Positions 1-28,792 are shown, counted from the stretch's first letter. The stretch is 64,000 nucleotides of DNA from an uncultured Planctomycetota bacterium (GCA_963823665.1 CAWGMQ010000004.1:64001-128000); one strand, 5' to 3'. Notes: generated by a model not told the origin, from the letters alone. Numbers and translations are program-made.

Positions 1-1
1 G

Positions 2-1477: not shown

Positions 1478-1494
1478 GCCGGATGATTTGAATC

Positions 1495-4438: not shown

Positions 4439-4470
4439 AGCGCATTCCCGCTCGAGGAAACGACGGAACC

Positions 4471-9808: not shown

Positions 9809-10024
9809 CGGACGTTGAGGCCGGTCCCTTTCATGTTCGGACCCATTCTGGCAATCGCCAGAATCCGCGACCATGCGCGATCCCCGTGGAAGCCACCCTC
9901 GTATTCAATATAGACCAGCCCCGCGCAAGCCGGGTGGTCGGATCGCGTCGTGAGTCGGGATATCGACCGCCGCATGGGCTACCAAGACCGTCACGCAATC
10001 CTCATACTGAATAGTGCAGGTAGC

Positions 10025-10053
10025 TTGAGGGTCGGATCGGGGGGGGGTACGAT
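10025..10053 (+). promoter_or_regulatory. Putative sigma70-type promoter with a G9 tract in the spacer
   Basis: TTGAGG (10025-10030), 17 nt spacer containing G9 (10039-10047), TACGAT (10048-10053). About 200 nt upstream of the GTPase ATG. Confidence 0.5.
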
Positions 10054-10253
10054 GAGGCGCTCGGTACGTTGGCCGGCCTGCGTCTGCTTCCGTCTTCGTG
10101 ACGGCCACCGCGATCATACGCGCCACTCGATGTCACTCGGTGGGCCCAAGGCGGGCGAGGGAGGGCGGGCGTGGAGCACGTCAGAGCGAGCTCCTTTGAT
10201 GTTTCGAAGCGGGCAAGGCGGGGCCGGCCCGCGGCGAAGTTGAAGGGTGGGTC

Positions 10254-12431
10254 ATGAGTCGACTGAAGTGGTGCAGCCTGACCACCGCGGCCTTGCTCTT
10301 CTGGCTTGCGTCGTCGACGGCCGCGCTCGCTCAGAATCAATCCGCGACTCGAAACGCAGGTCTTGCAAAGCTCCAGCAAGAGCTGACTACCCTCAAGCTC
10401 GAGATCCTCAAGGCCGAGTCCCTTGCCGAGGAGCTCAAGGATGAAGAACGCGTGCTCTCGACCGAACAGCAGGGGGCCGAATCAAGCGATACGCGATTCT
10501 TCCGCGCGCCCGAGAAAGTCTGGATGAAAGCGTTCCCCGGGAATTACGCGAAGGAAGGAGACTCCGACCGCGTGCTCGAAGAACTCGCGAGGACCCACAG
10601 AGACGTCGACAAAGACCAGAAAGAGGCAACCAGAGCGTGGACCTACGCTTTTGATCGGATGTTCGCCTTGCGTGAGAAACAAGCGGAAACCGAACGGATC
10701 ATCGGCTGGAAAATGGGCTCCAAGCCGGTCGAAGGAGCCGTGTCGCCGGGAATGATCGGCCTGGGCGCTCTGGCGGCGCTAGGGGGTCTGGTGCTTCTCT
10801 GTCACGAGAACCGCGGTCGCCTGAGGTGGCGGTTGCGGGCGCTGGGCAGCCGGCCCAGCATGATCACCGCTGCCATCGCTCTGCCCCTGGCGGCCGCCTG
10901 CGCCGGATGGGCGGGCCCGGGCGACGACGACGACACCCCGGCCACGCGCACGGTTAGTTCCGCTCTGGGCACCGCAGCGCTCGTCAAGGAGCTAGAGGGC
11001 GAGCGCGATGCGCTGAAGCAGCAGCTCGAAGAAAAGCAGCAAGCCAACGATGCCGCACGCGAACGGCTCGAGGACCGGCTCAGGGACGTGCGGCACGCGC
11101 GGGCGGCTTATTCGCTCAAGCCCGAAGAAGCACAGAAGAAGATTGTCGACCAGGCCGAGCAGTTCGAGGAGAAGGTCCAGAGAGCTTATCGTGATCTTCG
11201 CGTGGCGGCTCGCATGACCGCGCGAGCAATCGCCGAGGCTGAGGGCATCGAAAAGAAGCTCGAGCGAGATCAATCGGACCTCGAAGCGTTTGTCGTGGGA
11301 AGCAGGGGCACCGCCAGCAAGCTGGGGCTCCTCCGAATCGGCACCTCGATCCTCTTCGTCCTGGCGGCCGTCGTTCCGTTCTCGCTGGTACGCCGCCGCC
11401 GCCGCCGCGAGCGGCTCGAGCAGAGTAGGAAGTGTCCCCGTTGTCTCAACAAGGACACGCTCGACTTCGTTGCCCCGTCCTCTGATCACGAGTTTGACGA
11501 AGGGCAGACGATGTTCCGCTTGAAGGTGTGTAACGCCTGCGACTACGAGATTCGCGAAAACTACATCCACGAGAACCGGCTCTGTTTCCCCACGGTCGGC
11601 ATCAGGAGCAGCGGCAAGACGCACTGGCTGCTCATGCTTTACGACCAGATCAAGAACTCGAACATCCCGGTCGCCTCGGCGATCAGGAAGATTCCTTCCC
11701 GAGAGGACAAGCAATTCGACGAGATGGTGCAGCGCTTGCTCTACGCGGGTGGAGGCCTCGCTCCTACCGTCTACGGCTTGCCCAACCCGCTCACGTTTCA
11801 CGTGCATGACGCCGACCGGGCCGGCGCCAACAAGTCGATGGTCAATCTCTTCGACTACTCCGGCGAAATGCGGAACTTCGACATCGACACGAACGAATTC
11901 CGCCGCCGCGCCCTCTTGTGCGAGGGATTCACGCTCTTTCTCGACCCGACCCAGGCCTCCGAGGGCTCAGCCGGGCTGATCGCCTCGCAGATCGACTGCC
12001 TGTCGAAATTTGCCGAGGAGATGCACGCGATCCGGAGCCTGTCCGCGGACGCGCCGATCGATCTGCCGATCGCAATCTGCGTTTCCAAGATCGACCTCTT
12101 GACCACCAGAAGCTCAATGAGCACCCAGGCCATCCCGCTCGTCACGGCTCTCAGGCAGTCGATGACCAGGCGGGTTGATCTCGCGCTCATTCAGGAGCGG
12201 TCGCAGCTCTGTGCGGCGGCGATCAGTCAGTTGTTTCCCGGCTGGAACATCGAGCGCTCCCTGCGCGAGAACTTTGGCGGCCGGTACATGTTCTTCCCGA
12301 TGAGCGCGGTCGGGCTCGAGGAGGCCGAGCTCGGCATCGAAGACCTCCGCAAGCGAACGATTGCCCCGTGCGGAATGATCGAGCCCTTGCTCTGGCTGCT
12401 GCACATGCACGGTTACTGTGTATTCCACTAG
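10254..12431 (+). CDS. Membrane-anchored TRAFAC-class GTPase (DO-GTPase2-like) with coiled coils and Zn ribbon
   Basis: Signal peptide, two coiled coils, three TMs, CPRC...CNAC. G1 GIRSSGKT (11598-11621), G3 LFDYSGE, LFLDPTQ, G4 VSKID, G5 PMSAVG. Confidence 0.85.
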   Translation: MSRLKWCSLTTAALLFWLASSTAALAQNQSATRNAGLAKLQQELTTLKLEILKAESLAEELKDEERVLSTEQQGAESSDTRFFRAPEKVWMKAFPGNYAKEGDSDRVLEELARTHRDVDKDQKEATRAWTYAFDRMFALREKQAETERIIGWKMGSKPVEGAVSPGMIGLGALAALGGLVLLCHENRGRLRWRLRALGSRPSMITAAIALPLAAACAGWAGPGDDDDTPATRTVSSALGTAALVKELEGERDALKQQLEEKQQANDAARERLEDRLRDVRHARAAYSLKPEEAQKKIVDQAEQFEEKVQRAYRDLRVAARMTARAIAEAEGIEKKLERDQSDLEAFVVGSRGTASKLGLLRIGTSILFVLAAVVPFSLVRRRRRRERLEQSRKCPRCLNKDTLDFVAPSSDHEFDEGQTMFRLKVCNACDYEIRENYIHENRLCFPTVGIRSSGKTHWLLMLYDQIKNSNIPVASAIRKIPSREDKQFDEMVQRLLYAGGGLAPTVYGLPNPLTFHVHDADRAGANKSMVNLFDYSGEMRNFDIDTNEFRRRALLCEGFTLFLDPTQASEGSAGLIASQIDCLSKFAEEMHAIRSLSADAPIDLPIAICVSKIDLLTTRSSMSTQAIPLVTALRQSMTRRVDLALIQERSQLCAAAISQLFPGWNIERSLRENFGGRYMFFPMSAVGLEEAELGIEDLRKRTIAPCGMIEPLLWLLHMHGYCVFH

Positions 12432-12464
12432 ACTGATTGAATAAAGCTCTGAGAGATTTCTCTC

Positions 12465-15281
12465 ATGGGTTGGCCGAGCCCCGGCGATTACAACGGTGCC
12501 ATCCAGACCCCTCAGGCCGCCTTCCGCGACCCGAAGCTCAAGGATTGCGCCGTTGAATTGAAGCCGAGCAAGAGCATGCCGCTGCCCTGGGCGCGCACCG
12601 GCGCCAATGCGATCGTGTACCGGCTCTACAACGGATCGGGCTCGACAGCCGTGCGGGTCTTCCTGAACGCGCCCAAGTCCGAGCGCCAGGCGCGGTACGA
12701 GATGGTCGGGGCATACCTCCACCAGATGAAGCCCCGGTGCACGGTCGATTTTCACTACGACCCCGAGGGAATCCTGGTCGGACAGTGGCTCCCGATCCTG
12801 ACCATGGAGTGGGTTGAAGGCAAGACGCTCGGCTCATGGTTCCGCGACGCGGTGGAGCGGCAGGATTCGCCCGGCATCAAGCGGATGGCGCACGAGTGGA
12901 TCAAGCTCATGGGCGAGCTGCGGTCGCACCAGATCGCGCATTGCGACCTCCAGCACGGCAACGTGATGGTCGTGGGCGACCGGCTGATGCTGGTCGATTA
13001 CGACGGAATGTACGTGCCCGCGATGGGCCAAGGTGAAGAAAAAAACCGCGTTGCCTGGGAAAACGGCCTGCCTGCATACCAGCACCCGAGCCGGCCGGGC
13101 CAGCTCCTTTCCCCGGCGATCGACCACTTCTCGGCCTGGCTCATCCTGATCTCGCTGCGGGCCGTGGCCGACGACCTCTCACTCTGGCATCGCACGATCG
13201 GCTGCACCGAGGAGGAAAGCCTGCTCTTCACCGAGAGAGACTTGAAACAGCCCGACCGCTCCGCGTTGTGGCCCGAGCTGATCAACCATGCCAGAGACAG
13301 GAAAGTTCGCGAGTGGACGGCCGCGTTGCGGCGCTCGCTCGATCGTCCGTTCGAGGAGATTCCGCCGTTCTACCTCGACATTTTTGACCCGGTGCGCGAG
13401 GTGATCAAGGCGGGCGACTGGCGGCAAATCCATGCGCTGGCCTCGAGCCAGCGGTTTGCCAATGAGACGTTTCCGGCCGACGTCGCCCCCAAGGTGAACG
13501 AGGCGATCACGCGGGTCGACTGTGCCCAGCTCTTTGAAGAAAGCCTGCAGAGCGGCAACCTGAAAGCAATCGCCAAGGCTTACCGGCCCGACTTGCTCGA
13601 CGATTGGCTCGACCCGGCGACGGTGGCCAGGGGAAAGCAAGCCAGGGCCGCAGCCGGCCTCATCGACGAGCTCGCCCGCGCCGAGCAAAAAGACCCGGCC
13701 GGCCGGGCGCTGGTTGCTCTTTGGACCGCCCGCGGCAGCGAGCTCCAGGGCATTCCCGAGGCCGACGCGGTCAGGAAAAAAGTCGATCTGTGGAAGAAGC
13801 GAATTGCCGCCGCCGAAAAAGTCGATCAGGTCGTGCGCACAGCCGGGCGGGAGAAGGATATCTTCGAGTCCTGGCAGGCGCTCGACAAGCTGGGGGGCCA
13901 CCCCGATGCCGAGCCACACCGCGTCCGGGCCGAACAGGCTGCGAAATGCCTCAAGGCCCTCGAGGCGTTCGCCGCGCTGCCGCTGACCGAAGATGAGGCT
14001 GCCGACCGCACACTCCTCAAGACCTGGGGTGCGAATTCTAAAGTACTCACCGGCTGCAAGGAGGCCGATCCGTTCCTCGCGCGAGCCCGCGCAGCCAAGG
14101 GGCGCGAGCAGCGACTGGTTGATCTCAAGAGCCGGATCGAGCAGGCCGACCACGGCCAGGGAAGTGAGCGAGCGGTGATCGAGGCGGCCGAAGCGCTTCC
14201 GCCCCGATACGGCGCGAGCTTCTCCGAGCGAATCCGCCAGGCGCGCGAGCGCCTCTCCGCCTCCACCGCACTCGATCACGCACTCGCGGGCGCCCATCCC
14301 TCCGACCTGGCCATCGCCGATGCTGCCGAACGCGCCCGCACCGGTGGAACCTGGCCGGTGAATGCCGCAGTCGCCGCCCGCTGCGTGCTGGCGATCAATC
14401 GCCGCGACCTGCTGCGGACGCTGGATGCGATCTCTTCCGCACTACCTCTGGACGAACAAGACGCGCAGTGGGCCGCATTGTGGGACAACTCGCTCCTGGC
14501 CGACTGCGGCGATGCCCGTGAGCATCGCGCCCGGTATTCAAGTGCCCTCGCGCGCAACGCGGCGTTCGCCGAGCTGGAGCAGGGCCTTCTCGCCGGCGAT
14601 GCCATCAAGGTGAAGCGCTTCGCGCGCGACCCGATCCTGGCGGAACACCCCGGCCTGGCGCGCCGCAAGCCGGAGATCGACGCCCTGATCGCCAAGAGCG
14701 AGCAGGTCGAGCGGCTGCTGGCCGCCGCGAAATCGGGCCATGTCGATGCGTTTCTCGCCGAAGCTGAGCCTGGATTGCTCGCCGCGCACGCAATCGAGTT
14801 CCGTCCCTACCAATCCCAGATCGCCGCGTGGATCGACAAGCGGCTCGGGCAGGGTGACATCCTTCGCGCGGCTGACCCCATGTTCCTTGCCGACCCCGGG
14901 GGCCATGTCGTGACGGCTCGGTGGGCGTGGCAGCAGCCGCAGCTCGTTCAGCGCTGCCTGGTTGCCACCGACACGCGGCGATTCCTCGAGCGCCCCGAGG
15001 ACGCGACGCGGGGAACTGTCAACCTCGACCCGGACATGCACCGCCGCGCCAAGGGGGGTTCGGCGTTCGCGTTGCCGCCCGGGACCGCGAAATTATATGT
15101 GACCGTCTGGCCGGTGGTTGATCTGGGCTGGGACCGGCGGATCGGCCCGCCGTTCCGAATCGGGCCCTACAATGCCGCCAAAGCCGGCGAGTCCGGCCGC
15201 CCCGGCCCTCAGAAGGGTGCAGGCGAGCAGCGACTGCGGGCCGGTCTGCGCACCTTCCTGGAGCGACTACTTAACTCTTGA
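12465..15281 (+). CDS. TerY-P-type Ser/Thr kinase with helical repeats and a C-terminal beta-sandwich
   Basis: WPSPGDYNGAIQ start, MEWVEG, HCDLQHGN, LVDYDGMYVP, YQHP, DHFSAWLI. No TM seen. Confidence 0.85.
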   Translation: MGWPSPGDYNGAIQTPQAAFRDPKLKDCAVELKPSKSMPLPWARTGANAIVYRLYNGSGSTAVRVFLNAPKSERQARYEMVGAYLHQMKPRCTVDFHYDPEGILVGQWLPILTMEWVEGKTLGSWFRDAVERQDSPGIKRMAHEWIKLMGELRSHQIAHCDLQHGNVMVVGDRLMLVDYDGMYVPAMGQGEEKNRVAWENGLPAYQHPSRPGQLLSPAIDHFSAWLILISLRAVADDLSLWHRTIGCTEEESLLFTERDLKQPDRSALWPELINHARDRKVREWTAALRRSLDRPFEEIPPFYLDIFDPVREVIKAGDWRQIHALASSQRFANETFPADVAPKVNEAITRVDCAQLFEESLQSGNLKAIAKAYRPDLLDDWLDPATVARGKQARAAAGLIDELARAEQKDPAGRALVALWTARGSELQGIPEADAVRKKVDLWKKRIAAAEKVDQVVRTAGREKDIFESWQALDKLGGHPDAEPHRVRAEQAAKCLKALEAFAALPLTEDEAADRTLLKTWGANSKVLTGCKEADPFLARARAAKGREQRLVDLKSRIEQADHGQGSERAVIEAAEALPPRYGASFSERIRQARERLSASTALDHALAGAHPSDLAIADAAERARTGGTWPVNAAVAARCVLAINRRDLLRTLDAISSALPLDEQDAQWAALWDNSLLADCGDAREHRARYSSALARNAAFAELEQGLLAGDAIKVKRFARDPILAEHPGLARRKPEIDALIAKSEQVERLLAAAKSGHVDAFLAEAEPGLLAAHAIEFRPYQSQIAAWIDKRLGQGDILRAADPMFLADPGGHVVTARWAWQQPQLVQRCLVATDTRRFLERPEDATRGTVNLDPDMHRRAKGGSAFALPPGTAKLYVTVWPVVDLGWDRRIGPPFRIGPYNAAKAGESGRPGPQKGAGEQRLRAGLRTFLERLLNS

Positions 15282-15323
15282 TCATAATTCGGCGCCTTTG
15301 GCTCGAGCGCACCTGTAGGTAAC

Positions 15324-18300
15324 GTGATGACGACACCCAGCTCAAAAAGCCTCGAACGCACGCCGTCCATCGCCGGGCCGATCGAGCAGCTTTACGTCAT
15401 GCACTGCCTCAAGGAAGACAGCGTTCTGGGGCAAGAGGGCTTCAGCGTGCGCGCCTCGAGCCCCGGCGCAAACGACGCGGCGATCCTGGAATGGGCCCTC
15501 CGGCTCGATTACTACGAGCTGCCGCTGGACATGAAGTCGGGCACGCTTCTGGTTAACCAGGCGCCGCGGCGGCTGGCCCGCGTGCCCGGACCGCCGGGCC
15601 GGGTCGCTCTCGTGCACACAACCTATCTCCCGCAGGACACTGTCGGGCGATCGCACAGCTTTCTCTCGCACATCGCGATTCTTCCCGAGCTGCCAGATCT
15701 CGCCGCAGTGGCCGCGTGGGGTTCAACCGAGTGGCAGACCACGGAGTACCCCCGCGGCGATTCCAAGGTGCTCTCGCCGCTCGATCGCCTGCCGCGCGGC
15801 ACACTGATCGACGAGGCTGCCCTCAAAGGATTCCTCGCGAGCGGAGCAGCGCCGCAGGATCAGAGCCTCGCCCGGTCGATCTACCCGAGCCGCGTCGAGT
15901 CGAATCCCCAGGCGCGGCGGCGCTGGGTGCGGGCCGCGCTGCACGGCTTCCTCAAGGCCGGCGAGCCGAGCTCGCGCAAGGCGAGGCTCTGCATTCTCGC
16001 CGAGCCAGGCGCCGTGGCGCTTCTGATCTACGCAATCGCCCGGCTTTTACCGGAACGCATTGCCGGCGCATTCCCGTTTTCGACGTATGAGCCGCACTAC
16101 ACGTCGTTGCGAGACAACAAGGTGGCTCGCGTGATCGGCAGCTTCGCGCGGAACGGCCTCGATCGAGGTGATCTCGAGAGCCTGAGGCGCCGGGGATATG
16201 TGCTCGACACGCTTCGCAATGACGACGACCCCGATCTCGCCGTCGCGGCTGACTGGCCGCTCGAAGGGATCATCACTCTGGCGGCGGAAGGCAACTGGAA
16301 AGGTGTGGATGAAATTCGCGAGCTGTGGTCGCGAGACCCGCGCATCGCACCCGGCGTTTCTGCGACGGTGCTCGGCGAGGCGCTCAGGGTTCGTCCTCTG
16401 GCCGCCGCGCTGAAAAGCGGCACGCTCGGGCCCGAGGGCCTGCTCGAGCTGCGCCGGAACCATTTCGCAGCAGGGCTGCTCCGCGAGGACGAATTCCGGC
16501 GTCCCACCTGGGAGGCAGTGCGTAAGGTCTGGTTGCAGCCGGTCATCCGGCACGAGTTTGCCGACTTGTTTCGTGAGCACACCGAAGAACTGCTCGCCGA
16601 AGTGACCGGCCTCGTGGAATCCGGACCACCCGGAGCATGGCGCGAGGCCTGGGAGGCACTCAAGCCCGTGATCCCGGCCGAGCGGCGTCTCGACGACTTC
16701 TCGAAGCTGCTGGCGGCGATGGAACACACCGGCGCCGCGCTCCCCGCGGGCGAGCGGGCTAATCTTCTGGTCGACTGGTGTCAGGCCGCGCCGGCAATCG
16801 CAGTGTTTCCAACCGGGCTGCACTGGCTGCTGCATGCCGGCAGCGCCGAGGCCTTCCGCACGCTGCTGGCGTCATCGAAGGTGAGCACACGCCTGGCCGG
16901 CGTCGCAACCTGCCTGGCTCTCTGCGGCGGGGCAGACTGGTCGGCTGAACCCGCTTTTCTCGGCGACCTGCCCGACGACCAGTTCCACGCGTTCGCCACC
17001 GCATTGCCGGGCTTCGAAAACCGCAAGAGCGTCTATGACCGGCTGAAAGCAGCCAGGGGGTCGAGCAAGGTGCTGGTCGACCGGCTGGTCCGGCTTCGCT
17101 CCAGGTTGCCCGAATCGTGCGTGGAGGACGTGCTCTCCGCTCTGAACTGCGACGAGGCGGCGTGGCACGATTACTGGCTCAAAGGCGGGGCGCGAACTTT
17201 GCGGCGATGCTCGCGCACGTCGCGAGCGACTCGGGGCTGGCCCGGCGGATCTGGCAGGGTCTGCTCGGCCGGATGACCCCCGAGAATTTCGCCGACGGCG
17301 AGGCTTCCGGCATCGACGTGTTCGCCGAGATTGCGCGCCGTTATCCAAACTCGCTCTCCCGCGATCAGCAAGAGCGGCTCGAGAGCTGGAATGCGATCAC
17401 GCAGGCGTTCGTGAGCCCGGACACGAAAATGCCGGCGGCCGAGCGGGCCGCGAACCTCGCCTCGGCCTGCCGCGCGGCAAATGTCAAGCGCGAGGACCTG
17501 GCTGCACAGTGGTTTGACACGCACATTCTGACCGCATCGAGCCCGGCAGATTTGAAGAAGAAGTCCGAACAATTTGGACGCGCCCTGCTAGGGTTGTTCG
17601 AGACGGAAGACGCTGCTGCCGCGCAGGCACTCAAGCTGGCGAACGGCGTGGAGAAGCGCGAGCAGCGCCGCAAGTGCACAAGCGCGATGTTCCAGGCGAT
17701 CGTCTCAGGCGAGAACCACGATCGCCTGGCGCTCAAATTCGAGAGCCTGCTAAGGGAGACCGATATCCGCCCCGCGCCCGACGTGGATTTGCTGCAACGA
17801 GGAAAGCCGCGGGGGAGCACAGGCAAGGGAATTGGGATCGGCCCTTTTCGGCTTTCGCCGCAGGGGACGCGAAATCTGCTGACCTTCGTGGGTGGCGCAA
17901 CGTTCGCGCTATTGCTCATGCTGGTGCTGTTTCCCTTGGTGACGCAAGTCGGGAACTGGTTGTGGCCATCAAACGAATTGAACCAGACCGTTCTGGCTCT
18001 CGACGTTGCCAAGAAGGCAGAGCGGGCGCTCTCTGCCCGGATCAAGGAAAAGGATGAGGGTCTTGCAAACATGCAGAACCAGCTCGATTCGGGCAAGGCC
18101 GAAATCCGGCGGCTCGCGGGCGAGCTCAAGTCGGCGAAGGAGCAACATCAGAATCAGCTAGACGCAACAGGATCTGATGCTCGTCCGCAAACAGGCGTCG
18201 ATAACGCCGGAGTCCGCCGGACCCCAGTGTTCGTCGCGGGGACGGTCACGACCATCGACCTGCGGCAAGTCGCCCGCGGGGCCCCGACGAAGAACGGTTC

Positions 18301-19742
18301 GCCAAAGGAAGCGGCGGGCCCGGGAAGGTCGTCACCAACCGGCGGTGACAACATGACTCGCAGCGGCATTGGCGCCGGCACTCCGTCCGAAAACGCAGCA
18401 CTGATTCGGAATCTGCTCGACGTCCTGGTCATTGATCGCCCCATCGCATACCAGCGCGACATCGCTCGGTCTCTCGAGCTCGTGAAACAGGCGGAGCAAA
18501 TGCAGATCGGCGATGCTTACTCTGCTCGCCTCAGGCTGGTGCGACGGCTCCTCACCGGCTTGACGTTCGGAGACTTACCGATCGATCCCGGGGCGGCCAA
18601 GCTGACGACCGATGATTCGCACACGGATCTCGCATTTCTCAGTGGCAATGACGGCCGGTCGGTCCTTGCGACGATCAGGAATCACGTCGTCCCTCTCAAT
18701 CTCTATTTCTTCGAAACGAATGCAGGAGGGTTGTCCTGGAAGGCGAAGGTCCCGACGCTCAAGGAACGCACGCCGAACGTCTTGACCGCGAGCTTGTCCG
18801 GGCGCACGTTCCTCGCGGGCCGGAAAACAGACGACCGATTGGACAATCTTCGTATTTATACAGCCAAAAATCTGTATGAATTAGTATATCAGAAAGACCG
18901 GCTGAGAAGGAACATTATACCTGACGAAGAACGCACGATCTCATTGCAGTCCGAGAACCTCCGCCAAACTGGCCGTCACTGACGTTGATCGCTACGCACT
19001 TGCCGGACCAGCGGGAGTGATGAAGTGGCCTCCAGGTGTGACGGTGGAATCGTCCGGGGGCAATGCTCTCGCGGTTGACTTGAAAGCTTTCAACGACCTG
19101 GTCGAAGGTGAGCCGGTCATTTCGGCGATGACGTTCGACTATACTGGACATATCCTGATCATCGGTTTCCGAAATAGCAAACAACTGCCCGTGTTCGAGC
19201 TAGCGAATGATAAACTGAACCCCGTGGTGCTTCCGAAGTATCCTCACGATGTCCGGGCTTGGGCGCACGGCGTTCACGGAAACCTGGCCGTGGCTACGGA
19301 CCGGGACGTCTTCGTCGGAGAGATCGTCCATACCAGCGACACGGGCACCTTCGAGTCGGTCACACTGACGCCCCCAGTCCCACTGAAATCGAGGAGCTCA
19401 CCGGGCCATCTGACCTGCGTGGCGTTCAGTCCGAAGGGTTCGATTGTCGCGACTGGAGACGAGAACGGCGCGATCGCAATCCGTCCGCTGGATCGATCGA
19501 ACGAGGGAGGCGAGATCCTTCGACTTGGTCACATCGGGCCGATCCAGAAGCTCGCGTTCAGCCCCGACGGTCGCGTGCTCGCGGCGCTCGCCAGCCGTCC
19601 GGACGCAAAGGACGATAGCTCTGCCGACGACAAGAGCAAGGTTCACCCGGGCGTGATCCGCCTTTGGGTCACCGAGGGTTGGGAGCGTACTGATCAGGTG
19701 CGAGGCCAAAGCGGCGCGGCCGTCGCGCCTGATGCAAAATGA
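15324..19742 (+). CDS. GAP1-N2/GAP1-M-like protein with helical region, TM, coiled coil and WD40 propeller (~1470 aa joined)
   Basis: EQLYVMHC...GQEGFSVRASSPG, YLPQDTVGRSHSFLSH, FPFSTYE. Frameshifts near 17190 (G run) and 18960. TM near 17880-17960. WD40 motifs TCVAFSPKG and GHIGPIQKLAFSPDG...IRLW. Confidence 0.75.
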
Positions 19743-19817
19743 CGATTGTGACTCACTGAAATCCGTGTATCTACGTCGCTCCGAGGGCGACGAGCTCATA
19801 GAGGCCTGCTTCCGCAC

Positions 19818-21171
19818 ATGCGAAAAAGCCTCCTCATCCTGTTGTTGTGTGCTCCGCTTCTCTGGATTGCCGGGGCGGAAGGGACGCGGCTTTATAATGT
19901 CTATCGGTGGTCGAGCCCGGAGCTCGAGTCGACCGACGACGACCCGCCTCCCAGGCCGGAGGTCCTCGCCAAGGCCAGGAAGACGGCGGATGCGATCCTC
20001 GAGCTGCCCGACGGCGTGACGTCCGCCGTCGTCAAACTCGAACCGCCGCCGCCGGGTGCCCCTCTTGAGCCTCACGTGGGCAGCGCAGTCCTGAACCACT
20101 CCAAAAAGCGGGCCGAACGCGCCTTCGAGGTTGAGCAAGCCAAGGACGATGGGCTCAAGGTCGAGCAGCAGATCAGACAAATCCTCAAGAAAATGCGCGG
20201 ACAGGACGGCTGGCCGTCGGTGCCGGACAAAGAGAAAGAGCTCGACGGAGTGCTCGAGGAATACGTGGAGAAGGTGCACGACCCCGAGCTGGTGGCTTCG
20301 GCGCACGCCCAGTCGGCCTGGGTTCCTCGAGAAGAGAAGTTTTCGCGGGCCGAACTCGAAGGGCGCTTCAAGGCAATCGACCAGTGGTCGCCGAAGGATG
20401 CCGGCAAGGCGCCACCCTTTGACGATTTCATCGCGAGCTACCGTGGCTACTTGAACGACCACGAGCTGGCCAAGGAAGCGTATGCGGTGAAGCTGACCGG
20501 AGAAGCCAAAGCAAGGCTCGCGCTGGCGCAGCGCGGCGCCCTACTCGTCAGCATCCTCAAAAACTCGGTCGCGCCAGAATCCGACCCGGATCCGATGAAA
20601 CAACGCATCGAAGCGATCGCGGCCATCGCGAAGTTGAACGACGACAATCCCGGTGAACCCGTCCACTCGACGCTCAGGCACATCGTGCAGGTTCTTTGCG
20701 ACGAGTTTCTGAAGCCCGAGCCGCTCGACGAATACGTGAGCCTGACGACGGCGAATTCGCTGGCGCCGGAGAAAGTCAAGCGAACAGATATCCAGGTCAG
20801 CCTGAAGAGCAGCGGCGAGACCGTTTCACTCGGGCCGGACGGGGAATACAAGATCAAGCCGCAAGACGTTGAATCCATCACGCTGGTCTCCAAGATGGTC
20901 GAAGCGCCAGCCCCCTGACGGAGGCGTTCCACCGCTACAGGGAACGGAGTATAGTGAAGCCATCAGGGCATTCAACAGCGTGCGCGAGGGGATCAAGCAA
21001 TGGTCCAGTCAGGAGCTGGATAAGCTACTTGACACCTGCAAGAAGAACGAATCGAAGCTCAAACAAGGAGGCGGTGCCGGGAGCGGAGGGCAAACGCTGA
21101 TCGATCGCATCACGAAACTCCGTGAAATTGTGCACAGCCACCCGAGCCTGTTTGCGTCCGATGTTCCGTGA
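19818..21171 (+). CDS. Exported or membrane-anchored helical hypothetical protein (frameshift in C run near 20915)
   Basis: MRKSLLILLLCAPLLWIAGA leader. ORFs 19818-20918 and 20869-21171 join by removing one C. Confidence 0.7.
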
Positions 21172-21246
21172 CCTCCATCGTCTCGTGAGAATGTCCATTG
21201 TTTCGCCAGTTTCCGTAAATCCGAATCCAAACTCGAGGAGCCCCCG

Positions 21247-22177
21247 ATGCCCAGCGGCAAGTACCAGCAAAGTGCCTCGCGCGCCAATCCGGCGTGCATC
21301 ATCTTCCTGCTCGACCAATCCTACTCGATGAACAACGGGATTGCCGGCAGTCCGCGGCCCAAGATCGACGCGCTGGCGACCGGGATCAACCGGTTCCTCG
21401 CCGATCTCATCACCCTTTGCGAGAAGGGTGAAGAAAAGCCGCGCAACTACTTCGACGTGGGCGTGATCGGCTATACGACCGATCGGATCGACCCACCCAA
21501 CCCCATCATCGGCTCCGTGCTCTCCGGAGCCAACGGAACGCTCGCCGGGCCGAGACCTGGTCTCCGTGAGCGACTTGTTTGACGACCCGCTGGCAATCGA
21601 AGACAAGCAGAAGATGGTCGACGACGGGGCCGGCGGCTTGATCAGCACGACCTTCAAGCTGCCGGTCTGGTATCGCAAGCCGGCCGACGCCCAGATGAGC
21701 GGCACGCCGATGTGTGCGGCGCTCGAATATGTGCGGAATATCGTGGCGCCGTGGTGCGCCAGCCATCCCGGCAGCTTCCCGCCAGTCGTCATTCACTTGA
21801 CCGACGGCGAGCCGACCGACGGCGAGCCCCAGGCGGCTGCCGATGCGCTCAAGGGGCTCTCGACCGACGACGGCGAGCTGCTGCTGTTCAACTGCCACAT
21901 CTCGGAGTCGCAGGCAAGCCCGGTCGTCTTCCCGAACAGCGAGCAAATCCTGCCGGATGAGCTGGCGAAATCACTCTTCCGGATGTCGAGCGAGCTGCCC
22001 GACAAGCTGCGCGGCGTCGCGGAGTCGAAGGGCGTGCTGGTGGGCCTCGGAGCGCGGGGCATGGTCTTCAACGCCGACGGAGCACAGATGCTGCTCCTCA
22101 TCCAGATGGGAACAGTGGGCGCACAGCAGGCAGCGCCCACGGAGTCATCCGCACCGCATTCACCGCTCCACTATTGA
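21247..22177 (+). CDS. TerY-like vWA domain protein (frameshift near 21550)
   Basis: SRANPACIIFLLDQSYSM (MIDAS DxSxS), GTPMCAAL, FPPVVIHLTDGEPTDG, LLFNCHIS, LFRMSSELP. Confidence 0.9.
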
Positions 22178-22224
22178 TTGATCGCGTCGCGCTTTTTGAA
22201 ACCTCAAGCGGTGATTTCTGGGCC

Positions 22225-23500
22225 ATGAGCATGCCATTCGAAAACGACGAAGCGAACCGAGCCGGCGATCATCAGCTCCGATCGCTGCTGGTCAACAAGC
22301 TGTCCGCCGCGCGAAGGCTCGGCGACTTCGTTCGTGGTCTGTGGTCGAGCGCAGAAAGCCCCGAAACGCAGCCTGAGGCCGGCCCCGAGATTCCCGCCGG
22401 GAGCCTGCCGCTGCCCGACGTGGCTCTGGCAGCCGGAGCTTGTCGTCGCAGAATCTGAGCCCGAGAGCATTCCCGAGCCCGCAGCAGAACCGGCGCGACC
22501 CGCTCGGTTCGAGCTGCGCGTGCTCTGGGCCCCGAAGGGAGGCAACGACGAGAACGAGTGGGAAGACGGCTACGCCACCAATGCCGGCAACGGCATCGTT
22601 GCGCTCGCCGACGGCGCCGGCGACGGCATTTTCTCAAAACTGTGGGCCGACCTCTTGCTCGAAAGCTTCGTCGCCGAACCCATACCGCTCGAAGACGCGG
22701 CCGCGGTCGAGCCGTGGATTCTGGCGCAGCGGCGGGCGTGGCTCGATGCCATCCGGTACCCGGACCAGCGCTGGTCGATCCAGATGAAGATCGATCGATC
22801 GTGCGGCGCGGCGACGTTCGTCTCCCTCAAGCTCGATCCCGGGAGCGACGCGGGCGACGATCCGGGCCAGGCGATCGGCTGGACCGCCTGGGCCGTGGGC
22901 GATGCCTGCTTGTTCCACATTCGCGGCGGCGGCCTGACCGGGTCGTTCCCGGTCACGGCCTCGAGCGAGTTCGGCACCACGCCTTACCTCTATCAGTCGA
23001 AGCCGATGCGGCCGACGCCCACCGCGGTCGTGACGCGAGGAGAGCTGGGGCCGGACGACCTGATCATCTTTGCCACCGACGCCGTGGCCCAGCGGCTGCT
23101 CTTTGAAGTCGAGTCCGGAGCTCCGCCGGATTGGCGCCGTTTCTGGGACCTCGATCAGGAGACCTGGCGGCAGGAAATCGCGGAGCTCCGGGCACAAAAC
23201 GCAATTGTCAACGACGATTGCACGCTCCTGGTCATTCGCCTGCCGGTCGCGTCGCCGGAAGCTGCGGAACCGTACGACATCGAGCCGGCCCAGGTACCCG
23301 CTGATGCAGCGCCCGAGGAGATAGCCCCGACGGTATTCGACATGGCATGCGTCCGGGAAGTGACCGGCCGCCACGAGCAAGAGTGTGAGCCAACATCCGT
23401 GGCCGAGAGTGAAAGCGAGTTCGACGGCTCGCCCACGGCAATGCGTTCGGATAGCGCAACGTCCGAGCGGCCCTCGTCACGGGACGACGATCATGATTGA
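22225..23500 (+). CDS. PP2C-family protein phosphatase, TerY-P type (frameshift near 22430)
   Basis: PKGG...EWED, ALADGAG, GAATF, AVGDACLF, FATDAVA, NDDCTL. Acidic low-complexity ends. Confidence 0.85.
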
Positions 23501-25934
23501 ACAACGTAAGCTGCCAGTGCCGATTTGCCCGGCGATCGCAATGGCGGCGCTCTTGATCGCAGCCGGCGGCCGCGCCGCGCCGGTGATGGCGCAGGATGCT
23601 CCCAACGAAAAAGCAACGACCGCGGCGCAACGGCTTGTGGCGAAGCTGCGGGCGGCGTGCGAGTCAGAAGTCAAGCTGCGCGGGGTGTTGGTCGAGGCGG
23701 ACGAGCTGCACGACGGCCTCCTTTCGCTCAAGGGAACGATCGATCGCCGGGAGCAGGCGAGCTTGATCGAGGCGGAAGCCAAGCGATTGCTGGACGAAAC
23801 GCCGGCCTGGAAAGCCGATGTTCCAGGCGGAGTGAGCGCCGCCAAGCTGATCGTATTTCCGATCAGGAGCGAGGTGCTCCCGAAGCTGCGCGCCGACATG
23901 GCCAAAGCGGCATCGCCCGCGGCGGCCAATCCCAGCTTGTTCCGTCAGACCCGGATTGACGACCTTTATTTCGATGCGGATGGATGTTTGCGGGTCGACG
24001 CCCTGTGCATCAATCAGCGAGCCTATCTCGCGCGCAAGAACCCGGCCGCGTTTCCGAAGGACGACCCGGTGGGGGAGATTCGCCGGGAGGTCCATAAACG
24101 GCTGCAGGGCTATCCTCTTCCGGAAAATGTCGACCGAAAGTTGATCGCAGATCTTCGAGGCGGCCGGCTTGCATTCGAGCCAAACCCGGCGCGGCTTCTA
24201 CAGCAGTTTGCGAATGAGGCAAAGCTCGACGACGTTGTGTTCCGTGACGCGTGGTTTGACGCGAAGGGTGAGCTGAAGGTCGACGGTCTGCTCGGTGGCG
24301 AAAAGACGGACGAGCGAGCTTTGGCGGCGAGCCTGGCGGCCCGGCCCGAGGTCGCGAGTGTGTATGCTAGACCCTCCGGTGAGCCGGCGATGAAGCCCGC
24401 AGACGTGGTCGCGCCGATGTCGGTTGCTCCGTGGCGAACGACGCTGCTCGCGGGCGTTCAGAAACGCTTCGCGGACGACGCGAATTCCAAGGGGTCCTTG
24501 AGCATTCTACGTCATTGCCGGATTGACCGCGCACGGTTCACGTGCTCGGAAAACGCGGGCCTGACCCTCAAGTTTGAATTCGTCGCGCTGGTCACTGGCA
24601 AAGAGCAGGTTGCCGTCGGCACACACCTCATGAAGGCCAGCAAAGAACAGATCAAGTTCCCATTCGACGTGGATCCGATCCCCACACGCCTCAACTCGCC
24701 TCTTCCCGCGCTGCAGCAGAAAGTGGCGACGACTCCCGCGCTCGACGGCGCACGGCTGGACGATCTGGTATTTGGTCCGACCGGCAAGCCGACGCTGGTG
24801 GGTCGATGGCTCGGGCCCGCGCAGGCGGAGACAATTGATGCGGTGCTGGTCCCCCTGGTCGTGGAGCACACAAAGGGAAAGGTAACCGGTCCGCTCGAGA
24901 AGAGGTTGATCGCACTCCCAAGCGACCGGCTGCTCAAAAGCCTTCGGAAGAGGTTGCTCACCTCGCCCAACGAGACCAGCCTCGATCGGCTCTTCTTCCG
25001 GCCCGCCGCCCTACAAAACGTCCGCCCCGAGATCGTGCTGCAAGGGGCCACGCTCGAGACCACGCTTTCGGAGACGAAGAGTCATATCGAATGGTGGTTG
25101 AAGGTCGATGAGCTTGCCAGGGACGTGGGTACCGCGGTCGTCGAGCTCACGCCTCGTTCCAGGAGCCTTCTCACCGAGCTGCGCAAGCTGGTGGCGGGCG
25201 ACACGGCGCTCGACGGGGTGCTGGTCAAGAGCGCTTCGTTTGACGAAGAAAACAACCTTGTCCTCACAGGCCGCCAGGACCGCGACGGCCAGGCGCAGGG
25301 TGCCATCGCGCTCATTCCGAAAGCCGCGGCCGTCGCCTGGAAGGGATTGCCGCCTCCAAAAGCCGCGGCGGAAGGAGCTTTCGCCGTTTTTCCGCTTGCG
25401 TCGTTGCTCAAGGACTTGTCGAGCAAACTCCAATCCTACAGTGAATCCGACGGCGTGATGTTGACACGAGCATACTATGACGAGAAGGCTGAGCTGGTGC
25501 TTGCCGGGCGGGCCTCGAGCCCGCGGGGCGACCACTCGCCGCTCGAGCGGCGAATCAAAATGTTGATCGGGGACGATGCAGATATCAAGCTGGCGTCGCT
25601 CTCGCTCAAGCCCGAAGAAGCCGACCCCGAGCGGAAAGACAAGATCGTGGGCAAGAGCGTCGACGCGCTTGCCGCGGGAAATCTCGCGAGCTTCCCCCTG
25701 AGCGATCTCGACGAGGTCGTTTTCCTGGCGCCCAAGGATTCGATGGCCTGGTACCTGCGCGGAGCTTACTACTACCTGAGCAGGGATCAACCCCTTGCGA
25801 AGCGAGATCTCGGTCGCGCCCGCGCACTGGAAAAAAAATATCCGTCTTTGGACCGTGATCGGCGCCAGATCCTGGAGCGATTTCAAGGGCCCCTTCGTTC
25901 GACGCTCGAGGAGCTGATGGAGGCATCGCGTTAG
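23493..25934 (+). CDS. Secreted protein with ~8 BON-like repeats and a C-terminal TPR
   Basis: Signal peptide ending VMA-QD. Recurring LDGVxLxxxxFDxxGxLxLxG units. AWYLRGAYYY...AKRDLGRA TPR. Start overlaps the PP2C stop. Confidence 0.7.
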   Translation: MIEQRKLPVPICPAIAMAALLIAAGGRAAPVMAQDAPNEKATTAAQRLVAKLRAACESEVKLRGVLVEADELHDGLLSLKGTIDRREQASLIEAEAKRLLDETPAWKADVPGGVSAAKLIVFPIRSEVLPKLRADMAKAASPAAANPSLFRQTRIDDLYFDADGCLRVDALCINQRAYLARKNPAAFPKDDPVGEIRREVHKRLQGYPLPENVDRKLIADLRGGRLAFEPNPARLLQQFANEAKLDDVVFRDAWFDAKGELKVDGLLGGEKTDERALAASLAARPEVASVYARPSGEPAMKPADVVAPMSVAPWRTTLLAGVQKRFADDANSKGSLSILRHCRIDRARFTCSENAGLTLKFEFVALVTGKEQVAVGTHLMKASKEQIKFPFDVDPIPTRLNSPLPALQQKVATTPALDGARLDDLVFGPTGKPTLVGRWLGPAQAETIDAVLVPLVVEHTKGKVTGPLEKRLIALPSDRLLKSLRKRLLTSPNETSLDRLFFRPAALQNVRPEIVLQGATLETTLSETKSHIEWWLKVDELARDVGTAVVELTPRSRSLLTELRKLVAGDTALDGVLVKSASFDEENNLVLTGRQDRDGQAQGAIALIPKAAAVAWKGLPPPKAAAEGAFAVFPLASLLKDLSSKLQSYSESDGVMLTRAYYDEKAELVLAGRASSPRGDHSPLERRIKMLIGDDADIKLASLSLKPEEADPERKDKIVGKSVDALAAGNLASFPLSDLDEVVFLAPKDSMAWYLRGAYYYLSRDQPLAKRDLGRARALEKKYPSLDRDRRQILERFQGPLRSTLEELMEASR

Positions 25935-25947
25935 TCGGAGGTTTCCG

Positions 25948-27555
25948 ATGGCGACCGGCGGCCTGGAGGGTATGACCGATGGTGCGCCGCCGGCCTGGTC
26001 TCGTTTCAGGGTCTGGGTGGATGCGAGCGTCGGTGTCACCCTCGTCGTTGTGCTTGGAGTGATCTACGTCGTGGATGCTCGGACGTTCTCTTCGGCGCCA
26101 CCTGCGCTTTCACAATCGGACCACAGGGAGGCGGCGCTCGAGCCCCCCGAGCCGCCCCCGCCGCCTCCACTCGAGGAGCGCGCTGCGTTCGATCCGACCC
26201 CCAGAATCGAGCTTCACACGACGGACGACGGCCGGTTCGGCCTGCTTTGCCTCTCCGGCAACCCCGACGACAGCACCGACGACGGCAAGAGGCTGACGTT
26301 CAGCCCGGACGGGAAGACGAACAACACGCGCGTCATGGTCGACGGCCGGGCGCCCATCTTCGGCGGATCGCAGGGCGAGACCCTCGAGTCGTGGCACGCC
26401 GGTCCCGGCGAATCGACGGTCATGGACTGGTCCTATCGAGATGTACTGGTGCGGCAATCGCTCCGGCTCGTGCCCGGCGAAGTCTCGCACCGCGTCGATA
26501 CCGTGCGCGTGGCATACGAGCTCACGAACAAGGGTTCGAAGACCCGCCAGGTGGGTCTGCGCGTCATGCTGGATACGCTCATCGGGGATAACGACGGTGT
26601 GCCGTTCATCGTGCCCGGCCGCGACGGGATCGTCACCCGAACGCTGGACATGACTGGGGGCGACGTGCCTGACTTCGTGCGCTCGCTCGAGCGGCCGAGC
26701 CTCGCGAGCCCGGGTGTGATCGTTGATCTCAACCTCGTGCCCGAACCGGGCGAGCCCCGGCCCAGCGAGGTTTTGCTTTCTCACTGGCCCGGTGCGGAGG
26801 CGGGATGGTCCTACGCTCGCCCCGCGTCGTTTGTCGACGACACGGCGGTGGCCGTCTATTACGCGCCCCAGGCCCTCGAGCCGGGCCAGACGCGTTCGAT
26901 CGGATTTGGATACGGCCTGGGAACGATATCGAGCACCGGGACCAGAAATGCGCAGTTGAGCCTCACAGCCGGCGGCCCGATCAAGGCCGGTGCAGCGTTC
27001 TGGCTGGTCGCGCTCGTGAACAAGCCCCGGCCGGGCCAGACGGTCACGCTCGTATTGCCGCAGGGGCTGGCACCTCGCCGTCCCGGATCACTCTCGCAAT
27101 CGGTGCAGGGCTCCGGCGCATACACGCAGTTGAGCTGGCTGGTCGAGGTCGCACCGGAAGTTCTCGGAGAGGTAACGGTCGCAGCCTTACTGGAGCCTGG
27201 CGGAATCAGCGAACAGCAATCGCTCAGTGTCGGGCCCGCGGACGCACAGCTATCGCTCGTGCCTCGTGGACCGTTCCGTTCGGGCCGGCCATTCTGGATC
27301 TCGGCGCTCGTGCATAACCCGCATTCCGGTCAGTCGGTAACCGTTACACTTCCCGACGGCTTGACTCTCGCGAAAGGCCACACCCCGTCGAAAAGCACGG
27401 GTGCCGCTGATCCGGCCGGATTTGCCCAGATCAATTGGCTGGTAATTCCCACATCGCGCCAGGGCGGCCGTGTGGAGCTTCAAGCGCAGCTTGTTCCCGA
27501 AGGGGTCGTTGCCCGTGCGACAGTCGAGATCAAGCCCGGTGATTTGACGCATTGA
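25948..27555 (+). CDS. Membrane-anchored beta-rich extracytoplasmic protein with two tandem Ig-like repeats
   Basis: N-terminal TM, Pro linker, GNPDDSTDDGKRL...VGLRVMLDTLIGDNDGVPF domain, two AQLSL...FW..ALV..P..GQ.V...LP.GL...Q..WLV repeats. Confidence 0.75.
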   Translation: MATGGLEGMTDGAPPAWSRFRVWVDASVGVTLVVVLGVIYVVDARTFSSAPPALSQSDHREAALEPPEPPPPPPLEERAAFDPTPRIELHTTDDGRFGLLCLSGNPDDSTDDGKRLTFSPDGKTNNTRVMVDGRAPIFGGSQGETLESWHAGPGESTVMDWSYRDVLVRQSLRLVPGEVSHRVDTVRVAYELTNKGSKTRQVGLRVMLDTLIGDNDGVPFIVPGRDGIVTRTLDMTGGDVPDFVRSLERPSLASPGVIVDLNLVPEPGEPRPSEVLLSHWPGAEAGWSYARPASFVDDTAVAVYYAPQALEPGQTRSIGFGYGLGTISSTGTRNAQLSLTAGGPIKAGAAFWLVALVNKPRPGQTVTLVLPQGLAPRRPGSLSQSVQGSGAYTQLSWLVEVAPEVLGEVTVAALLEPGGISEQQSLSVGPADAQLSLVPRGPFRSGRPFWISALVHNPHSGQSVTVTLPDGLTLAKGHTPSKSTGAADPAGFAQINWLVIPTSRQGGRVELQAQLVPEGVVARATVEIKPGDLTH

Positions 27556-27564
27556 GAGGTGTGT

Positions 27565-28788
27565 ATGTCTCTAGGACGGCTGATTTACTATAGTGCGATT
27601 ATCGGCGGGTGGTCGGCTCTTGTAGGGTGGCTGATCTCGGAGCTCACGCTGAGCCCCGGCGAAGGGAATCTGAGCGTTGCACTCACGTGCGCGCTCGTCG
27701 GCGCTGCGATCGGAATGGGACTGAACTTGCTCGCCGGGATGGCCAACGCCCGGTTCACCCAGCAGTTGAAGCGAGCCGTGCCGGGCTTGCTCGCGGGGGG
27801 ATTGGGCGGAGCGGTTGGAGGATTTCTGGGAAACGTCCTGTTCAGCGTCTTCAGCGTTTTCGGCGCCAATGTCCGGGCAATCGGCTGGATGGTGATGGGG
27901 GCCGGGATCGGTGTCGTCGAAGGGCTTTACGAGCGATCGCCGGCGAAGTTGCGCAACGGGCTGATCGGGGGTGCGATCGGGGGGTTTCTGGGCGGGATCC
28001 TCTTTGACCCGATCTCGCACATGATGGCGTCGAGCTCCTCCGGCATGAGCAGCCGGGCGACCGCATTCGTGATTCTGGGTATGTGCATCGGTATCTTGAT
28101 CGGCCTCGTGAAGGTCGTTTTCAAGGACGCGTGGCTCACGGTCCTGGACGGCTACCGCCCTGGCCGCCAGCTTATTCTCTCGGACGCACAGACAATCCTG
28201 GGCCGGGCCGAGTATGCGGCCTTGCCGTTCATGGGCAAGAACGATTCCACGCTGGAACTGGTCCACGCCAAGATCGTGCGCCAGCCCAACGGACGATTCG
28301 TCCTCGAAGACAACAAGACCAAGGAGGGCACGCGGCTGAATAATGTGCGGATCGACGGCCCGACGGTGCTGAGCGACGGAGACGTGATCCGCGTGGGGTA
28401 CAACTCGATCAAGTTCAGCGAGCGCCACCGCAAGGCCGGCGAGCCTGCCATGGCTCAAGCGGCCCCCCCAGCCAGGCCGACGGTCCAGGCACCGGCTCCG
28501 GTGCCGATCCCCCCGCTGCCGGCCGCAGCGACCACCGTCAAGCCGCCGGCCTCGGCTGTTCCTCCATCGAGCAGACAGGCTCCGATTCCAGCCGCTTCCC
28601 CCGTCATGAAGCCGCCGGCTCCGGCGCCCGCGCCGAAGCCCGTGCCGGCCGCACCGCTTGCTGCAACCGCCAGCCCTCGACCGCCTGCGCCGGTGACCGC
28701 GTTCGACGGATCGATGATTTGTCCAAGCTGCAAGAAGCCCGTACCCAAGGGCCAGCGTTACTGCATCGTCTGCGACATGTATTTCTGA
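27565..28788 (+). CDS. Gly-rich multi-TM protein with FHA domain, Pro-rich linker and C-terminal Zn ribbon
   Basis: About 6 GxxxG-rich TMs. AWLTVLDG...ILGR...HAKI...GTRLN...LSDGDVIRVG. CPSC...YCIVCDMYF. Confidence 0.85.
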   Translation: MSLGRLIYYSAIIGGWSALVGWLISELTLSPGEGNLSVALTCALVGAAIGMGLNLLAGMANARFTQQLKRAVPGLLAGGLGGAVGGFLGNVLFSVFSVFGANVRAIGWMVMGAGIGVVEGLYERSPAKLRNGLIGGAIGGFLGGILFDPISHMMASSSSGMSSRATAFVILGMCIGILIGLVKVVFKDAWLTVLDGYRPGRQLILSDAQTILGRAEYAALPFMGKNDSTLELVHAKIVRQPNGRFVLEDNKTKEGTRLNNVRIDGPTVLSDGDVIRVGYNSIKFSERHRKAGEPAMAQAAPPARPTVQAPAPVPIPPLPAAATTVKPPASAVPPSSRQAPIPAASPVMKPPAPAPAPKPVPAAPLAATASPRPPAPVTAFDGSMICPSCKKPVPKGQRYCIVCDMYF

Positions 28789-28792
28789 GCGG

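Follow-up and report, generated by a model that had tools for sequence, protein, structure and literature searches.

A nine-gene planctomycete operon as a probable membrane-spanning, lineage-specific form of a predicted GAP1-N2 GTPase system

Does an operon that interleaves a GTPase/GAP1 pair with a TerY-P triad and several envelope proteins represent a new kind of bacterial system, or a variant of one already predicted? The operon in question lies at 10254-28788 of a 64,000-nucleotide stretch of an uncultured Planctomycetota genome (G000:C4:64001-128000; GCA_963823665.1 CAWGMQ010000004.1:64001-128000), which we call the window; the genome comprises 16.46 Mb in 12 contigs and is 91.9% complete. 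An earlier description made from the DNA without database searches, here called the sequence-only reading, had taken the combination to be undescribed and proposed a candidate new system. We conclude from domain content and gene order that the combination of its five core genes had already been predicted computationally in 2020, and that the operon, which is conserved among soil planctomycetes, represents a variant particular to this lineage, not a system of a new kind. With a probability of roughly 0.6, we read it as a single operon for a GAP1-N2-type DO-GTPase system that spans the membrane, follows the kinase/PP2C/vWA theme in a form peculiar to planctomycetes, and works by a mechanism that we infer.

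The prediction comes from a computational survey of GTPase-centric systems, which are defined by a DO-GTPase and a GAP1 protein (Kaur, Burroughs, Iyer and Aravind, eLife 2020, PMC7159879). In the accessible text of that paper, the GAP1-N2 systems are membrane-proximal, include planctomycetes among their hosts, and carry a rapidly evolving protein with fibronectin type III (FNIII) repeats. GTPases bearing transmembrane (TM) segments and GAP1 proteins with C-terminal TM and extracellular domains are described there as well. A "third theme", found in 10% of the GAP1-N2 neighbourhoods, adds a kinase, a PP2C phosphatase and a standalone vWA protein and is called "restricted to actinobacteria". Since that text describes GAP1-N2 together with kinase, PP2C and standalone vWA, the claim of an undescribed combination fails. 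Thus the existing description covers the five-gene core of the operon, and does not extend to its four envelope genes or to its planctomycete host. Full-text literature searches on GAP1-N2, DO-GTPase, double-GTPase or GTPase-centric systems returned no other relevant paper, and neither the four envelope accessory genes nor the hypervariable GAP1 propeller described below turned up in literature searches.

The nine genes, all on the + strand, are separated by intergenic gaps of -11 to 77 nucleotides (nt), and a convergent HEAT-repeat gene (28793-30364) closes the cluster downstream (Table 1). Domains were called with Pfam profiles at their family cut-offs and with PADLOC profiles, and membrane segments by hydrophobic-segment prediction. 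The arrangement of nine co-oriented, closely spaced genes is real, and its order is kept in relatives. A promoter and terminator scan of 9400-29200 gave background counts, 2 where 2.1 were expected and 20 where the expectation was 15.6 +/- 4.6.

Gene 1 encodes the membrane-anchored zinc-ribbon GTPase that the sequence-only reading had recognized. The protein has a signal-like N-terminus, hydrophobic segments at residues 165-183, 203-221 and 357-375 with two coiled-coil stretches between them, an Arg run, a CxxC..CxxC ribbon and a GTPase domain at about 440-725. An alignment of 74 homologues shows no variation at residues C394, C397, C426, C429, G449, G454, K455, D534, G537, K612 and D614, and the Walker-B glutamate, E538, is kept in at least 90% of the sequences, so that the motifs (P-loop GxxxxGK[ST], DxxG-E and KxD) are invariant or nearly so. 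The conservation of E538 fits the "conserved glutamate in Walker B" given for DO-GTPases in the accessible text of PMC7159879. The DO-GTPase2 profile (PF19993) is present in 48 of 120 among the matches listed of 341 gene-1 homologues, whose sources include Gemmataceae, Isosphaeraceae and Fimbriiglobus. A sequence search of the PDB with the GTPase domain gave 0 matches at E <= 1. Judged by its motifs and homologues, gene 1 is a DO-GTPase2-type GTPase with a predicted membrane anchor.

Gene 3 encodes the GAP1 protein. GAP1-N2 (PF20013) clears its cut-off of 24 bits with a score of 40.9, and reaches 44.4 when the genome is searched. It is followed by a probable GAP1-M domain, a helical region, one TM segment near residue 850, a coiled-coil or low-complexity stretch and a C-terminal WD40 beta-propeller, in line with the GAP1-N2-like/TM/WD40 giant described earlier. 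GAP1-M reaches 24.2-32.5 bits in several relatives, and no GAP1-C profile match was returned for gene 3 or the relatives scanned. A search of 1.84 billion proteins with the N-terminal region gave 403 representatives at E <= 0.001, and GAP1-N2 is at or above its cut-off in 39 of 40 long relatives scanned. The C-termini of these 40 vary: several carry WD40, four carry MgtE and many carry nothing recognizable. Where an MgtE-type membrane domain replaces the propeller (P0263, P0280, P0285 and P0293), it could be an alternative membrane output. One relative (G436, L008:11830-12937) has, downstream of GAP1, a second stretch like the GAP1 C-terminal region and WD40, at 31-43% identity, which may be a duplicated sensor module. 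A predicted complex of GAP1 residues 1-330 with GTPase residues 385-725 scored 0.00, which weighs neither way.

The remaining core genes resemble the TerY-P triad, which consists of a vWA protein, a PP2C phosphatase and a kinase with a zinc-ribbon or OB (oligonucleotide/oligosaccharide-binding) tail; the OB form is reported to act against phage as a stand-alone system (Gao et al. 2020, as cited in the accessible text of PMC11090510). The kinase (gene 2, kinase domain about 1-300) matches the PADLOC profile STK_OB at E 8e-46, limited to positions 1-273 of 562. Profile scans found no family match in its C-terminal region of about 640 residues, and no OB fold or zinc ribbon. Its HxDLQHGN and VDYD motifs are conserved among orthologues, and its best PDB match (window 12465-13400) is the pseudokinase-like KSR1, at E 3e-4, aligned over the catalytic loop and DFG region. 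TerY (gene 5) matches as two pieces, in open reading frames (ORFs) at 21247 and 21566, at E 3.4e-61 and 3.8e-16; the pieces cover profile positions 3-76 and 93-275, and the DxSxS motif of the metal ion-dependent adhesion site (MIDAS) is present (LLDQSYSM). PP2C (gene 6, ORF at 22334) matches at E 1.8e-17 and has the DGxGxG and DDCT motifs. Four relatives (L006, L007, L010 and L011) have a PP2C that begins with an additional vWA-like domain, in which QxSxS replaces DxSxS. The PP2C proteins of G000 and its same-genus relative G429 lack this degenerate domain and start at a Met inside the linker; on this comparison, the vWA-like N-terminus has been lost in both.

The interleaving of these genes is conserved. 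Of the 121 genomes of the order, G000 counted, eight gave a match to the GTPase domain at E <= 1e-20; among the 47 of high quality there were three. We searched 20-kb stretches at the seven other loci with the window's proteins; one of these loci, L009, is a 4.2-kb contig. All nine genes occur in the same order at three of the seven (L005, L006 and L011). L007 has eight genes, without gene 8; L008 has genes 1-7, where the fetched stretch ends; L010, which also lacks gene 8, has the five-gene core of GTPase, kinase, GAP1-WD40, TerY and PP2C, followed by an esterase and a sulfatase; and L009 has the GTPase and kinase alone, its contig ending after the kinase. TerY synteny rests on a C-terminal query and on the same-genus comparison. 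The kinase gene lies between GTPase and GAP1 in the window and in all six related loci that reach GAP1. Because the same gene order recurs in other genomes of the family, the arrangement is not due to chance. Across the phylum, 401 evenly sampled genomes yielded GAP1-N2 in 36 cases and TerY in four; G000 was the one genome with both.

This arrangement bears on whether two independent systems, a stand-alone TerY-P triad and a GTPase/GAP1 pair, simply became neighbours by chance. Each of the three PADLOC profiles for TerY-P finds a match, and TerY-P-like modules are described as acting alone or plugging into other systems (accessible text of PMC11090510). Nevertheless, we consider a chance pairing extremely unlikely, because some 6 kb separate the kinase gene, which sits between GTPase and GAP1, from TerY and PP2C, with the interleaving kept in relatives; because the kinase is without the OB or zinc-ribbon tail of TerY-P kinases; and because the same pairing is reported for actinobacteria in the accessible text of PMC7159879. 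Thus, although the three proteins match TerY-P profiles and TerY and PP2C have their motifs, the triad here is split by two genes and embedded in a GTPase/GAP1 membrane system. The profile matches and gene order bear out the earlier proposal that a GTPase/GAP1-N2 pair and a TerY-P triad are interleaved in one operon.

Compared with the GAP1-N2 systems in the accessible text of Kaur et al., the operon shares a TRAFAC GTPase that combines a zinc ribbon, a Walker-B glutamate and TM segments in its N-terminal part; a GAP1 protein with an N2 domain, a probable M domain, a C-terminal TM segment and an extracytoplasmic domain; the kinase, PP2C and standalone vWA of the third theme; a membrane protein with beta-sandwich repeats; the lack of a classical toxin; and the presence of more than one such system per genome. 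In contrast to the third theme in that text, the host belongs to the Planctomycetota and not to the actinobacteria, and the paper's source data may list planctomycete examples. GAP1 is not directly downstream of the GTPase and is separated from it by the kinase gene, still within the same operon. The C-terminal part of the kinase is long and unmatched, where those systems have a zinc ribbon or beta-rich domain; the GAP1 protein carries at its end a WD40 propeller that is periplasmic and hypervariable; and there are four extra envelope genes.

These four genes give the operon its envelope side, and the predicted segments and signal-like starts agree with the claim that most products of the operon are membrane-bound or exported. 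Gene 4 has the signal-peptide-like start expected of the exported protein described earlier, and no Pfam or Protein Atlas match. For gene 7, an AlphaFold2 (AF2) model with a predicted local distance difference test score (pLDDT) of 86.1, built from 18 sequences, shows a chain of beta-hairpin-plus-helix modules and a C-terminal TPR region (710-814, Z about 10 in structure comparison); Protein Atlas leads point to TPR alone. Foldseek matches the modules to the periplasmic domain of YscD (4alz, E 6.3e-4), PrgH, CdsD and the BON protein DolP (E 0.023). Of the earlier label "BON-like repeat/TPR", the TPR part stands; the repeats are, in the model, small alpha/beta modules that weakly match ring-building-motif and BON-like domains.

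The gene 8 product, which had been called an anchored immunoglobulin (Ig)-repeat protein, does have an anchor and two Ig-like domains, and its large part is a mutarotase-like supersandwich instead. Its AF2 model (pLDDT 89.3, predicted template-modelling score 0.79, built from 74 sequences) has a TM helix at 19-46, a beta-supersandwich at 82-346 and Ig-like beta-sandwiches at 337-430 and 434-530. The supersandwich matches galactose mutarotase-like proteins and the N-terminal domain of glycoside hydrolase family 94 (GH94) phosphorylases with Z 15.1 and a root-mean-square deviation of 3.0 A over about 200 residues. FNIII is not told apart from other Ig-like folds in this protein, which is 64-80% identical among relatives and is not fast-evolving. 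In other proteins, homologous ectodomains are joined to double zinc ribbons, and in a single case to a sigma-70 domain, and a role of gene 8 as a sensory ectodomain would fit these fusions. The gene 9 product agrees with its description as a multi-TM protein with FHA and zinc-ribbon domains: residues 1-195 are 18% Gly and contain 15 GxxxG motifs and five to six hydrophobic segments, an FHA domain at 214-280 scores 41.1 bits against a cut-off of 20.7, and a C-terminal CxxC..CxxC zinc ribbon follows a Pro/Ala-rich linker.

An FHA domain on a membrane protein and tandem periplasmic alpha/beta modules recall YscD/PrgH ring proteins of type III secretion, and the profile of the YscD cytoplasmic domain gives a weak match to the FHA protein (22.5 bits, under the cut-off of 33.2). 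Unlike YscD and PrgH, the two parts here are on separate proteins, and no secretion-system genes are present. We rejected membership of that family, given these separate proteins and weak matches (including TM-scores of 0.12-0.31 for the Foldseek hits).

The likeness to secretion rings bears on a second possibility, that the operon encodes a lineage-specific housekeeping or developmental machine for envelope signaling, acting in budding, at the cell pole or in remodeling of envelope and glycans, in which the GTPase and the phospho-switch would organize a periplasmic scaffold. The ring-building-motif resemblance of gene 7, the weak YscD match of the FHA protein and the carbohydrate-enzyme-like supersandwich of gene 8 are consistent with such a role. 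So are the neighbourhood of signaling and repeat genes and the finding that Pfam and PADLOC returned no nuclease, protease or toxin family for any product of the operon, in agreement with the sequence-only reading, which had seen no nuclease or toxin effector.

How the proteins diverge points the other way. Amino acid identity between G000 and G429 is 95-98% for TerY, 88-97% for the GTPase domain, 88% for the kinase, 84% for GAP1-N, 80% for gene 8, 73% for gene 4, 58-73% for gene 7, 69% for the periplasmic N-terminal half of the GTPase, 63% for the middle of GAP1 and 34% for the GAP1 propeller. Envelope parts thus diverge far faster than cytoplasmic parts. Nucleotide alignment of the two genomes fails at 17943-19514, and the G000 propeller is closer to those of more distant genomes (46-47% identity to L007 and L011). 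No diversity-generating template repeat matching 17943-19514 was found in the window. Extreme divergence of the propeller within a genus in which TerY barely changes, the sporadic distribution of the system within the order, the relative that keeps the five-gene core alone and the second GAP1-N2 system next door together suit a fast-evolving accessory system more than an essential one. We therefore regard the housekeeping role as unlikely, while granting it a real chance of being right; the sporadic distribution and the diversifying propeller lead us to favor a conflict or accessory role.

How might a membrane-spanning GAP1-N2 system of this kind work? The zinc-ribbon GTPase, GAP1-N2/M, kinase, TerY vWA, PP2C and FHA are predicted to face the cytoplasm; the coiled coils of the GTPase, the GAP1 propeller, the exported gene-4 and gene-7 proteins and the anchored gene-8 protein are predicted to lie on the envelope side. 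We suspect that periplasmic domains sense an event at the envelope, such as phage attack, contact or damage, with the hypervariable propeller and the glycan-binding-like supersandwich as candidate sensors. The TM helices of GAP1 and of the GTPase would carry the signal across the membrane, where it would change the nucleotide state of the GTPase. The kinase would phosphorylate a partner and PP2C would reset it, with the TerY vWA protein as a putative adaptor. The FHA domain of the glycine-zipper-like gene-9 membrane protein could then read the phospho-threonine, and that protein would most likely be the output, either by permeabilizing the membrane or by assembling a complex.

A bolder version of this scheme, which we think distinctly unlikely, is that the operon encodes a machine for trans-envelope surveillance, in which the periplasm, and not the cytoplasm, is where attack is sensed. 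The propeller, the glycan-binding-like protein and a ring-forming alpha/beta chain would detect phage or an antagonist at the cell wall, and a GTPase threshold together with a kinase/PP2C/FHA relay would open a glycine-zipper effector. If true, the operon would provide the first worked-out case of a DO-GTPase/GAP1 system, and also the first of a defence system with a diversifying periplasmic receptor.

Five single-base frameshifts within 18.5 kb break genes 3 (at two sites), 4, 5 and 6, so that the operon as assembled consists of 14 ORF pieces and not of nine intact genes. We located the breaks against the close relative L004/L005 of G429, which is collinear at 78-83% nucleotide identity. None of the five is common to G429, and the coding signal runs on across each break. 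G429 has its own breaks at other sites, in the GTPase, kinase, GAP1 and PP2C genes, gene 7 (two) and the HEAT gene (two). GAP1 is a single ORF in L006 (1506 residues) and L010 (1439 residues), and gene 4 is an intact frame of 460 codons in L004. We also aligned contigs of four soil-metagenome runs to 15000-23600. In run X1, 11 of the 17 aligned contigs are at least 99% alike, and one X1 contig is without one base at 21550. Contigs of X3 and X4 are without one base at 21545 or 21551, and an X3 contig has one base fewer at 18956 and a net loss of one base at 22417-22431. Since the relative has none of the frameshifts and contigs of other runs are without the indel at three of the five sites, the frameshifts are, on these alignments, most likely assembly errors, and we therefore take the operon to be nine intact genes in nature. 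Single-base frameshifts are frequent in the assemblies of G000 and its relatives (L004/L005, L008 and L011), with five here and eight in the homologous stretch of G429, and lead to fragmented gene calls in them.

If the frameshifts were real, the locus would be a decaying pseudogene cluster with inactive GAP1, gene 4, TerY and PP2C. The density of the breaks would suit decay, as would the two sites, named below, that have no independent contig evidence. We think decay very unlikely: every break is a single-base indel past which the coding signal continues, the same-genus relative has six breaks of its own in the operon and two in the HEAT gene and shares none of these five, and contigs of X1, X3 and X4 are without the indels at three of the five sites.

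Several observations weigh against our preferred reading of an intact, membrane-spanning GAP1-N2 system. The window's own GTPase scores 18.1 bits with PF19993, under the cut-off of 27, and 12.7 with PF19975, and the GAP1-M match in gene 3 (20.8 bits) falls just under its cut-off of 24. The position of the beta3 Lys is Arg in all five kinase orthologues, so that gene 2 possibly does not encode a normal active kinase. For the output step we can only guess, since Pfam and PADLOC recognize no effector domain. Two of the five frameshift sites, at ~17189 and ~20891-20905, have no indel in the contig alignment of the four runs, and run X1 may be the window's own sample. The surroundings encode sulfatases, repeat proteins and signaling proteins and do not form a defence island; the window ORFs scanned included no mobile-element genes. 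Lastly, our literature searches found no experiments on any DO-GTPase/GAP1 system, and the matching paper is computational.

If the reading holds, this planctomycete form is the most complete membrane-spanning version that we met in this analysis, with nine genes that set cytoplasmic switches against envelope parts. It extends the kinase/PP2C/vWA theme beyond actinobacteria and bears on the question of whether TerY-P modules serve as portable signaling cassettes. Two of its proteins, blank until now, have confident structure models, and its receptor-like propeller shows sharp divergence between members of one genus; this allows concrete hypotheses on which part senses, which part kills or signals, and whether a kinase with Arg at the beta3 position is active.

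Table 1. Positions of the operon's genes, its frameshifts and related features (window coordinates unless a locus or contig is named)
Feature	Coordinates	Strand	Description
Gene 1	10254..12431	+	Predicted membrane-anchored zinc-ribbon DO-GTPase2-type GTPase, 725 aa
Gene 2	12465..15281	+	TerY-P-type Ser/Thr kinase domain plus ~640-aa C-terminal region
Gene 3	15324..19742	+	GAP1 giant, ~1470 aa if read through
Gene 4	19818..21171	+	Predicted exported protein without family, ~450 aa, signal-peptide-like start
Gene 5	21247..22177	+	TerY-type vWA protein
Gene 6	22225..23500	+	PP2C phosphatase, ~425 aa
Gene 7	23490..25934	+	Predicted exported 814-aa protein, small alpha/beta modules plus TPR; alternative start GTG 23385
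Gene 8	25948..27555	+	N-terminally anchored envelope protein, mutarotase-like plus two Ig-like domains (model)
Gene 9	27559..28788	+	Polytopic Gly-rich membrane domain, FHA, Pro/Ala linker, zinc ribbon
Frameshift	~17189		GAP1 (gene 3), first site
Frameshift	~18956 (within 18906-18979)		GAP1 (gene 3), second site; gene 3 thus three ORFs
Frameshift	~20891-20905		Gene 4
Frameshift	~21548-21550		TerY (gene 5); extra C compared with L004
Frameshift	~22417-22431		PP2C (gene 6); start ATG 22225 in another frame than the PP2C domain
PP2C with vWA-like N-terminus	L006:13203-15020, L007:7213-9120, L010:10718-12415		ORFs of 566-636 aa
Second GAP1-N2 system	1..5259 plus G000:C4:62155-64000 (L003:16155-18000)	+	Outside the focal operon, ~10 kb upstream
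DO-GTPase2-like ORF of second system	L003:16155-16982
GAP1 gene of second system	Starts G000:C4:63081, ends window 1132		GAP1-N2 101 bits, 778-aa open frame
GYF_2 plus DUF4190 membrane protein	4291-5259		GYF_2 E 3e-21

Two paralogous GAP1-N2 systems adjoin at this locus. The neighbouring system, upstream of the operon, matches the planctomycete theme of GAP1-N2 systems with GYF-domain, TM-rich proteins in the accessible text of PMC7159879. It belongs to the same family as the focal operon, with GAP1-N2 and DO-GTPase2-like proteins, and differs in its much shorter GAP1 and in being without kinase, PP2C, vWA and envelope accessory genes. The focal GAP1-N2 is a divergent branch, since it scores 44 bits against 101 for the neighbour in the same search.

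The rest of the window encodes kinase-TPR, kinase-WD40, TPR, LRR, ankyrin and vWA proteins and sulfatases. Large Ser/Thr kinases flank the region, one of 928 residues fused to TPR (5303-8089, - strand) and one of 1365 residues fused to WD40 (55579-59676, - strand); the gene for the latter contains periodic DNA repeats of 126 nt.

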